Source: Escherichia coli | GTDB taxonomy: Bacteria > Pseudomonadota > Gammaproteobacteria > Enterobacterales > Enterobacteriaceae | DNA: 64,000 nt | Reading direction: 5' to 3' (one strand) | Assembly: GCF_030384885.1 (NCBI RefSeq) | Contig: NZ_CP128613.1 | Shown here: one piece after another, positions 18,001 through 21,000 of the stretch | How the letters are laid out: every line of letters starts with the position of its first letter | Numbering within the stretch: position 1 is the first letter of the stretch | Made by a program: the position numbers

Positions 18001-21000
18001 GCGTAATCTGCCACTCGACCATCGCGGCTGGCTTTGATTTCGATAAGACGCGCCAGTTTCTCTTTAGTGAATCCGCTTTCATCAACGACAGTGCCACTGG
18101 AATCTGACGCAGTAATCACACGGGCACCAAATTCCATCGCTTTTTCGATAGCGTACTGAGCGACGTTGCCGGAGCCAGAAACGGAAACGCGCATCCCTTC
18201 AAAACCCATACCGTGGCGTTTTAGCATTGCCTCGGTGAAATAAACCAGACCGTAGCCGGTAGCTTCCGGGCGAATAAGACTGCCGCCAAAAGAAAGCCCC
18301 TTACCGGTGAAGACGCAGGCGGTATTGTTGGAGAGCTTTTTCATCATCCCCGCCATAAAGCCGACTTCACGACCACCAACGCCGATATCGCCCGCCGGAA
18401 CGTCGGTATCTGCGCCCAGGTGGCGATACAGTTCAGTCATTAGCGCCTGGCAGAACCGCATCACTTCGCCTTCGCTTTTCCCTTTCGGGTCGAAATCGCT
18501 GCCGCCTTTACCACCGCCCATCGGCAGAGTTGTCAGGGCATTTTTGAAGGTTTGTTCAAAGCCGAGGAATTTGAGAATGGAGAGGTTTACCGACGGATGG
18601 AAGCGCATACCACCTTTGTACGGGCCGATGGCGGAGCTGAACTGCACGCGCCATGCACGGTTGACCTGCACCTGGTTGCGATCGTCAACCCATACCACGC
18701 GAAACTGGATCACGCGCTCCGGCTCAACCAAGCGCTCCAGTAATGACATTTGGCGATATTTTGGATTTTGTTCAAGAAAAGGCCAGAGTGTGGTCATTAC
18801 TTCACGAACGGCTTGCGCGAACTCGGTTTGATTCGGGTCGCGCTTTTGGACATGGTTGAGGAATGACTCCAGAGAATATGTCTGATCCATAGATATAAAA
18901 CCCTTATATATTAATACGATTATGCTTATGTTGTTTATGTCATGTGCTTTTGCAGTTTTCGACTATACCATCAAGAATGTGACGGTAAGCAAGAAAAAAA
19001 TGACTCACGAAAGCAAATTAATAACGGGAGAAATCTCATAACCAAAAGCGATAACTCAGACGCTAAAGTTTTGCCGCCAGGCTACCGTTATCAGTAGCAG
19101 AGACAAAAACGTTAAGGAGTTCCCTGTGAGTCGAGCATTGTTCGCCCTAGCATTGGCATTTCCATTAATTGCACTGGCTAACCCGCATTATCGTCCGGAC
19201 GTGGAGGTGAACGTACCGCCAGAAGTGTTCAGTTCAGGCGGGCAGTCAGCGCAGCCCTGTACTCAGTGCTGCGTTTATCAGGATAAAAATTATTCTGAAG
19301 GGGCGGTAATTAAAGCCGAAGGAATACTGCTGCAATGCCAGCGGGATGACAAAACTCTTAGCACTAATCCGCTGGTCTGGCGGCGCGTAAAGCCATAAAC
19401 GCCTTTAATAGTGGAATGTCAGCAGGGGCCAGCGGATATTGCAGAGCCTCTTCAGGTGAGCACCAGACCAGCGCCTGATGTTCATGTGCCTGTAACGTCC
19501 CGTGGAAGTTGGGTATGTGCCAGGCATGAAGATGGATAATCCGCCCCGACACTTCTCGCTGATGGCTGGCAACATACTCACCCACAGTTGCTTCGATGCC
19601 CAATTCTTCGCGTAACTCACGCACTAGCGCCTGCCGCTGGCTTTCATCCGGCTCGACTTTACCACCGGCAAACTCCCATAATCCCGCCTGATCGCTATGG
19701 GCGGGGCGTTGAGCGAGTAAAATTTTGCCATCACGTTCGATGATGGCGGCAACAACTTCAATCATATTCATAAATTACACACGGGCAGATAAGCGAAAAA
19801 TGCCATAATATCCGCACTGTTGCTCAATCAGAAAGGCTTTATATTTAAGGAGTGCCTGTGTTAGACCGCCATCTTCATCCCCGAATTAAACCTTTGTTGC
19901 ATCAGTGTGTGAAGGTGCTGGATAAACCCGGCATTACGCCAGATGGTTTAACATTAGTGGGATTTGCCATCGGCGTGCTGGCACTGCCGTTTCTGGCGCT
20001 GGGCTGGTATCTGGCGGCGCTAATCGTCATTTTGTTGAACAGGCTGCTTGATGGTCTGGACGGCGCGTTGGCGCGGCGAAGAGGACTTACCGACGCGGGT
20101 GGCTTTCTCGATATTTCTCTCGATTTTCTTTTTTACGCACTGGTGCCTTTTGGGTTTATCCTCGCCGCACCGGAGCAAAACGCGCTGGCAGGCGGCTGGC
20201 TGCTGTTTGCGTTTATTGGCACGGGAAGCAGTTTTCTCGCATTTGCTGCGCTGGCGGCGAAACATCAGATTGATAATCCCGGTTATGCGCATAAATCGTT
20301 TTATTATCTGGGCGGGTTAACCGAAGGCAGCGAGACGATTTTGCTGTTTGTTCTGAGTTGCCTCTTGCCAGCTTATTTTCCGTGGTTTGCGTGGGTATTT
20401 GGTGCGTTGTGCTGGATGACGACCTTTACGCGGGTGTGGAGTGGGTATCTGACGCTGAAGTCGCTCCAGCGCCAGTAATTGCAATGTTATTTGCTGCTGT
20501 CCGGGCCGCGCTCACCGGTTGCTACGGGATTTTTCGGATCGCTGCTCCATTCGTACCAGCCGCCGTCGTAAACGGAGACGTTATTCCAGCCCATTGCTCG
20601 TGCGTACATAAAGGTTTCGGACGCGCGCCAGCCGGTGCCGCAGTAGAATGAAACTTGCTGATCTGGTTTGATATTCCATGCTTTCCACATAGCGGCAATA
20701 TCATCGGCGCTACGCATGGTGCCATCCGGGTTATGGAAATCTTCCATATGCGTCGAGTCGCTACCAGCGTGTCCCCAACGGGCTCCGGCTATTTCACCTT
20801 TTGGCTTAATATAGCTGTAACCACTGGTCGTACCGATAAATTCTGGCCACGAACGAATGCTCACCAGCGATGCATCCTGGCGATGCAGCAGCCCACGGGC
20901 CTGTTCCATATCAAGCATCAACTGCGGTTGCGCCGGGATCTTCACGCCGAAATCCGGTTCAGCTTTCACTTTCGGTGGCGTTCCGCGCTCAACAGGCAGT

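Follow-up and report, generated by a model that had tools for sequence, protein, structure and literature searches.

Convergent coding overlaps of ynjH/nudG and ves/cho in Escherichia coli as probable by-products of genome compaction and stop-codon drift

When the coding regions of two convergent genes overlap, does each mRNA, being antisense to the 3' end of its partner, act on the partner's expression, or is the overlap a by-product of genome compaction? The 64,000-nucleotide stretch of Escherichia coli DNA analyzed here (contig NZ_CP128613.1; hereafter the window) raises this question twice. The gene ynjH (19126..19398, plus strand; 90 aa, GTG start, DUF1496 family) and the gene for the Nudix CTP pyrophosphohydrolase, nudG (19364..19771, minus strand; 135 aa), share 35 bp at 19364..19398, read on both strands with codon position 1 facing position 1. 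In the same phase, ves (36324..36899, plus strand; 191 aa, HutD family, annotated ATG at 36324) and cho (36859..37746, minus strand; 295 aa, UvrC-like excinuclease, GTG start) share 41 bp at 36859..36899, again on both strands. The original prediction described these two convergent pairs and their 35- and 41-bp coding overlaps, and this geometry is confirmed by a mechanical ORF listing, by RefSeq, and by K-12. For the RefSeq comparison, the annotation of NZ_CP027579.1 (strain 2013C-4282) was used, in which positions 695608-759607 are 100% identical to the window; its coordinates for all four genes are those of the ORF listing, and the annotation of K-12 MG1655 has identical overlaps of 35 and 41 bp.

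Could one gene of each pair be spurious, or a stop be misplaced through a sequencing error or frameshift? Neither ynjH nor ves has an established function, and many database overlaps are misannotations created by 3' extension, but only overlaps longer than 60 bp are deemed suspect, and both of those considered here fall below this threshold. Stop codons follow directly from the frame, and those of the four genes are unambiguous and conserved, which excludes mis-set stops. Of the 5426 complete E. coli genomes, 5423 contain the locus of the window, and in 5418 the segment from ves to cho has a single match with at least 80% coverage; K-12 shares the geometry. Because the listed full-length matches all span exactly 1423 bp, the ves..cho geometry appears to be fixed across the species. 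All four proteins have conserved homologues (3665 were recovered by a homologue search with Cho), and three match Pfam families: YnjH with residues 33-89 of 90 (DUF1496), NudG with residues 4-124 of 135 (NUDIX), and Ves with residues 9-175 of 191 (HutD). The C-terminus of YnjH lies within the overlap and is the most conserved part of that protein. Further, the paper on the GWIPS-viz Ribo-seq browser presents nudG/ynjH as its example of overlapping genes, with Ribo-seq on both strands. An annotation artifact is highly improbable and already refuted by the conservation data; judged by their homologues, all four overlapping ORFs can be taken as genuine conserved protein-coding genes. Both overlaps are real, and they are already known and catalogued. 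ExcludonFinder (Sanmartin et al., NAR 2025), applied to 58 RNA-seq data sets of MG1655, yielded a list of 165 convergent pairs with overlapping transcripts that includes cho-ves and nudG-ynjH, as well as ynjE-ynjF, another pair of the window.

That each mRNA is antisense to the 3' end of its partner, as had been predicted, is unavoidable from the overlap of the coding regions if both proteins are made, and it agrees with the published transcript overlap. Intrinsic terminators were sought with a consensus scan and with a lenient scan for a hairpin followed by a U-tract, and none was found downstream of the four stops. With no terminator between the genes, each polymerase must read into the 3' end of the partner, so the two mRNAs share complementary stretches of at least 35 or 41 nt. 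The first plus-strand terminator-like site downstream of ves (about 37946) belongs to a REP-like hairpin in the nadE-cho spacer (37900..37955), beyond cho, and the first intrinsic-terminator-like site for minus-strand read-through from cho is formed by the spy terminator hairpins (36141..36210; site at about 36142), beyond ves and its promoter. The available part of the published Term-seq tables places a strong K-12 spy 3' end at about window position 36201. In the same part of these tables, 3' ends are missing for ynjH, nudG, and ves, and Rho-dependent ends are placed within the cho ORF, at 24 nt and about 270 nt past the start, so that much transcription of cho stops short of ves when it is not induced. 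By inference, the transcripts of both pairs end diffusely, probably through Rho after release of the ribosome or through polymerase collision. No unusual RNA structure was detected in the ynjH/nudG overlap (fold z about +1 on both strands), and neither overlap matched an RNA family when scanned against Rfam. The plus-strand segment of ves/cho folds better than its shuffles (z -3.4); this candidate was dropped, the hairpin not being conserved in K-12 or Citrobacter freundii.

The two scans likewise found no terminator-like site on the plus strand between ynjH and ynjF (19330-19900). Together with the gene order, in which ynjH and ynjF lie on the same strand with nudG opposite between them (ynjH> <nudG ynjF>), this is compatible with a noncontiguous operon, in which ynjH transcription would pass through nudG in antisense and continue into ynjF, leaving nudG embedded and repressed. 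We regard such an operon as very unlikely. The trio is not among the three E. coli cases in the survey that lists nudG-ynjH, and the untranslated RNA beyond the ynjH stop would be a likely substrate for Rho.

How the overlap of nudG and ynjH arose can be read from related genomes. A NudG scan of species-representative genomes yielded 80 loci, in which stops were located by explicit stop search. In 76 of them nudG is followed by convergent ynjH, and the other four have no ynjH match. All 57 loci from Enterobacteriaceae (Escherichia, Citrobacter, Salmonella, Kosakonia, Kluyvera, Buttiauxella, Atlantibacter, Cedecea, Mangrovibacter, Phytobacter, Pseudocitrobacter, and others) have an overlap of 23, 26, 35, 38, 41, or 44 bp. 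The two genes are separated by gaps of 9-100 bp in Serratia, vary in Yersinia between a gap and an overlap, each of up to 12 bp, and overlap by 8 bp in Erwinia. In every Enterobacteriaceae locus, the ynjH stop lies over codons 125/126 of nudG, at the C-terminal limit of the NUDIX domain. The YnjH C-terminus encoded inside the overlap (STNPLVWRRVKP) is nearly invariant and lies within DUF1496. Residues 125-135 of NudG, encoded antisense to ynjH, lie beyond the NUDIX domain and form a tail of variable sequence (ALRAARPAD, ASRVAR, LLRDARPADSC, ASPAATSAGLFP, and others). NudG length accordingly ranges from 131 to 138 aa, and the tail differs among members of Escherichia themselves, with TAG in some and TGG in others.

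These comparisons bear on whether the overlap carries information beyond the two proteins. Conserved ynjH codons have about equal third-position entropy inside and outside the overlap, and higher constraint is limited to the last two to three ynjH codons, opposite F125-M126 of NudG. The ynjH synonymous sites in the overlap therefore appear to be free of constraint beyond that of dual coding; this result covers ynjH. As the alignments read, the ynjH/nudG overlap is an unconstrained NudG tail laid on a constrained ynjH end. The overlap is kept in every sampled Enterobacteriaceae genus, and we attribute this to lock-in, because the conserved parts of NudG and YnjH share about 5 nt, so that separating the genes would need a duplication, though the same retention is readable as selection.

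For ves/cho, the contigs that carry Cho homologues were identified, and the arrangement was tabulated for nine species or genera. The overlap measures 41 bp in E. coli and in C. freundii, 32 bp in Leclercia, 23 bp in Enterobacter hormaechei, and 4 bp in both Kosakonia and Yokenella. In the other three, ves is absent and cho faces spy, with 74 bp between them in Salmonella enterica, 113 bp in Citrobacter sedlakii, and 146 bp in Intestinirhabdus. The conserved core of Cho ends at YEIxEL (YEITEL in E. coli, residue about 287) and is followed by a variable tail, DPVNDPKAS in E. coli; that of Ves ends at FSEIxWLxGH (residue 185 in E. coli) and is followed by a lineage-specific tail, SPDQVR in E. 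coli. Where the overlap is 4 bp, both Ves and Cho stop at the end of the core and their stop codons interlock, and the longer overlaps are made of nonconserved tails on both proteins. The series reads as the classic pattern of stop-codon loss followed by 3' extension.

Run-ons of this length are ordinary. The window's own genes were read antisense in the phase of the two overlaps, with codon position 1 facing position 1, and stops in this phase occur at 5.2% per codon, or one per approximately 19 codons. Because runs up to the next stop have a median of 12 codons, with a probability of 0.54 for a run of at least 11 codons, a run-on of 11-13 codons is the chance expectation for genes that abut. 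Published counts put the convergent CDS overlaps of E. coli at 75 or 58, from which approximately 0.8-1.0 would be expected per 64 kb versus the 2 observed, and prokaryotic overlaps have a mean of 26 bp and a mode of 4 bp. Two of the nine convergent pairs in the window overlap, and two others come close, with ynjF/ynjE 8 bp and ydjO/tcyP 3 bp apart. Neither overlap exceeds what chance gives, and across the genome overlaps of this kind occur at an ordinary frequency.

Both plus-strand genes are preceded by FliA (sigma-28) promoter sequences. The ynjH promoter (19064..19091, plus strand) is sigma-28-like, reads TAAAGTTT-N12-ACCGTTAT, with the -10 element at 19084-19091, and was found by cross-genus alignment; it is recognizable in Escherichia, Citrobacter, and Salmonella, and degraded copies are present in Kosakonia and Kluyvera. 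Searching with the sigma-28 consensus at up to 3 mismatches returned one match, on the strand opposite ynjH and not significant (58/100 shuffles). The ves promoter (36244..36271, plus strand; AACGTAAATCACCCGAGTTGCCGATAAC, with the -10 element GCCGATAA at 36263-36270) is identical to the published K-12 ChIP-seq motif. Upstream of ves, a GCCGATA(A) -10 element is present in each of the five other genera examined; the Leclercia copy reads GCCGATAC, and the Yokenella copy is cut by the end of the extract.

Known to be under SOS control, cho has a LexA-box-like site of the form CTG-N10-CAG just upstream of its start (37760..37779, minus strand; CACTGGATAGATAACCAGCA). This candidate box, read from the sequence, would fit that control; it is weak, and a LexA consensus search at up to 3 mismatches found no match. 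Two FliA-driven genes, ynjH and ves, thus face two genome-maintenance genes, nudG (sanitation of the nucleotide pool) and cho (SOS-inducible excinuclease), an observation added by the present analysis.

In the published FliA study, K-12 expression falls from 29 normalized units in the wild type to 2 in the fliA deletion for ynjH, and from 18 to 0 for ves; fliC stands at 2319 in the wild type. The Salmonella homologue of ynjH, STM1300, is also FliA-dependent. With ynjH and ves expressed at such low levels, collisions and RNA duplexes should be rare. The main text and available supplements of the same study, which reports 68 FliA-dependent genes, make no mention of nudG or cho. Among the excludome entries are 5 of about 17 FliA units (flgN, ycgR, trg, ves, and ynjH) versus about 2 expected; as a rough after-the-fact count (P about 0.07), this enrichment is not regarded as significant.

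The pairing of FliA-driven genes with genome-maintenance genes invites a reading as cross-talk between motility and DNA damage, in which flagellar class-3 transcription would damp nudG and cho by antisense read-through and SOS-induced cho would shut off ves, its transcription crossing all of ves and the ves promoter. If regulatory, the arrangement would connect motility with the avoidance of mutations; no result here points that way, and we hold this cross-talk to be quite improbable.

More generally, the two pairs may be functional convergent excludons, in which selection would have favored the lack of a terminator because transcribing either gene represses its partner. Expression would then become mutually exclusive, through polymerases that collide head-on or through cutting of the 3' duplex by RNase III, with FliA-driven ynjH or ves set against nudG or SOS-induced cho. 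The transcriptional interference or mutual antisense regulation raised by the original prediction is plausible as a general mechanism, and for these pairs it is a candidate role. Both pairs belong to the E. coli excludome, mscL-arfA is a proven case of E. coli regulation through 3' complementarity, and head-on collisions shape termination at convergent pairs. Tail-to-tail abutment is retained wherever both genes are present, and both plus-strand genes have conserved conditional FliA promoters. However, a selected role is argued against by the variable overlap length (4-41 bp in ves/cho and 23-44 bp in nudG/ynjH), by the loss of ves, which is dispensable enough to be absent from Salmonella, Intestinirhabdus, and C. 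sedlakii, and by the unconstrained tails, with no extra sequence constraint at ynjH third positions. The weak expression of ynjH and ves, the early termination of cho, and the silence of the available FliA study on nudG and cho argue in the same direction. The dsRNA-capture validation with p19 is, according to the authors of ExcludonFinder, not feasible for convergent excludons. Selection of these pairs as excludons is, on this balance, unlikely.

As a counterpoint, the genes of excludon pairs are, as a class, co-expressed in single cells less often than other neighbors, and their synteny is higher, so some function is possible.

The evolutionary pattern favors the neutral origin of both overlaps, and we consider it likely that they are by-products of genome compaction and stop-codon drift. 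In this neutral origin, the conserved protein cores of each pair would have come to abut without a spacer, and one or both frames would run on into the neighbor until the next chance stop codon, leaving each extended protein with a short C-terminal tail of low conservation whose coding sequence lies antisense to the partner gene. Mutual interference would be a side effect, weak at the low expression of these genes and noticeable, if at all, on strong induction, by FliA for ynjH and ves or by the SOS response for cho. Compact tail-to-tail pairs that lack terminators are routine in E. coli, as the two cases here confirm. As a record of how overlaps originate and become locked in, the series of 4, 23, 32, and 41 bp in ves/cho and the passage from a gap to 23-44 bp in nudG/ynjH are a clean illustration.

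Four known systems provide points of comparison. At bidirectional intrinsic terminators with programmed RNAP collision (Ju 2019; Wang et al. 2022), opposing polymerases meet, as they would in the present pairs. However, these terminators need a stem-loop between the genes, whereas the pairs described here have no intergenic space, conserved hairpin, or U-tract, and the two terminator scans found no GC-rich hairpin with flanking A- and U-tracts between the stops near either overlap. The mscL-arfA pair of E. coli likewise consists of convergent neighbors with complementary 3' regions, an arrangement enriched in Enterobacteriaceae. It differs in that its antisense repression, of more than 2-fold, has been demonstrated by knockout and complementation, whereas for ynjH/nudG and ves/cho repression is a candidate role, and in that a 3' UTR is set against a CDS in mscL-arfA and a CDS against a CDS in both of our pairs.

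With the MG1655 excludons, both pairs share the defining arrangement of adjacent genes on opposite strands with overlapping transcripts. Exclusion of expression has been established statistically for that class and for relBE-ydfV, whereas the present pairs enter that study as members of its list. The closest likeness is to overlaps formed by 3' extension (Rogozin 2002; Fukuda 2003; Lillo & Krakauer 2007; Huvet & Stumpf 2014), which are, like both pairs, tail-to-tail, tens of base pairs long, and shorter than 60 bp. As in that class, orthologues of the present pairs in other genera show either a small gap or the 4-bp stop/stop overlap that is the mode, and the tails are nonconserved. The ORFs are genuine, the overlap is shorter or missing elsewhere, and the extension is poorly conserved and lies outside the domain, with the exception of the YnjH end. 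Nothing material sets the two pairs apart from this class, except that the family-wide nudG/ynjH overlap is older and more stable than most such overlaps, which are reportedly conserved only in close species.

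The only match in the window to TAACGTTATTGTCTCTGCTACTGATAAC, the motif given for the sigma-28 (FliA) promoter of ynjH by Fitzgerald et al. 2014, lies on the minus strand at 19088-19114 and points towards gdhA. In the cross-genus comparison, this minus-strand site lacks conservation outside the genus, and the element kept across genera is a sigma-28-like one with a 12-nt spacer on the ynjH strand, at 19064-19091. Judged from the sequence, the ynjH motif may have been published in the wrong orientation.

At the second convergent pair, ves is missing from the cho-spy interval in three genera, represented by the cho loci of Salmonella (L085), Intestinirhabdus (L091), and C. 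sedlakii (L092), while every ves-bearing genus examined retains the FliA promoter of this gene. Gain or loss of ves thus seems to involve the whole unit. Within E. coli, the ves-cho region (36324-37746) diverges more than is usual for a core locus. Identity to the window strain is 95-99% in 3503 of 5425 genomes, 90-95% in another 1921, and at least 99% in only one, which suggests either that the lineage is divergent or that the region is variable. Across the overlap, the stretch of ves mRNA at 36830-36930 (plus strand) folds better than every one of 200 shuffles (z -3.4). The main hairpin, immediately after the ves stop codon, is not kept in K-12 or C. freundii, and the strong fold is therefore probably due to chance.

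Published Term-seq data place Rho-dependent, bicyclomycin-sensitive 3' ends inside the cho open reading frame, 24 nt and about 270 nt from its start (K-12 positions 1823539 and 1823784; 5' part of cho, window 37476-37722), suggesting that cho expression is limited by premature termination, independently of LexA. The nadE-cho spacer contains a match to the ES036 (CssrF) sRNA (37854-37896, minus strand; Rfam, 42.9 bits versus a gathering score of 37.6), which adjoins a REP-like hairpin, shares its strand with nadE and cho, and lies directly upstream of the LexA-like box of cho.

Around the ynjH/nudG pair, the coding strand switches five times running (gdhA, ynjH, nudG, ynjF, and ynjE). The gene that comes after gdhA in K-12, ynjI (b1762), is not annotated in the window strain, where 83 bp separate the gdhA stop codon from topB (17463-17547). 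Two further convergent pairs are tightly spaced, ydjO/tcyP by 3 bp (48728-48732) and ynjF/ynjE by 8 bp (20478-20487), and ynjE-ynjF is included in the excludome list of MG1655 convergent pairs with overlapping transcripts (ExcludonFinder, NAR 2025).
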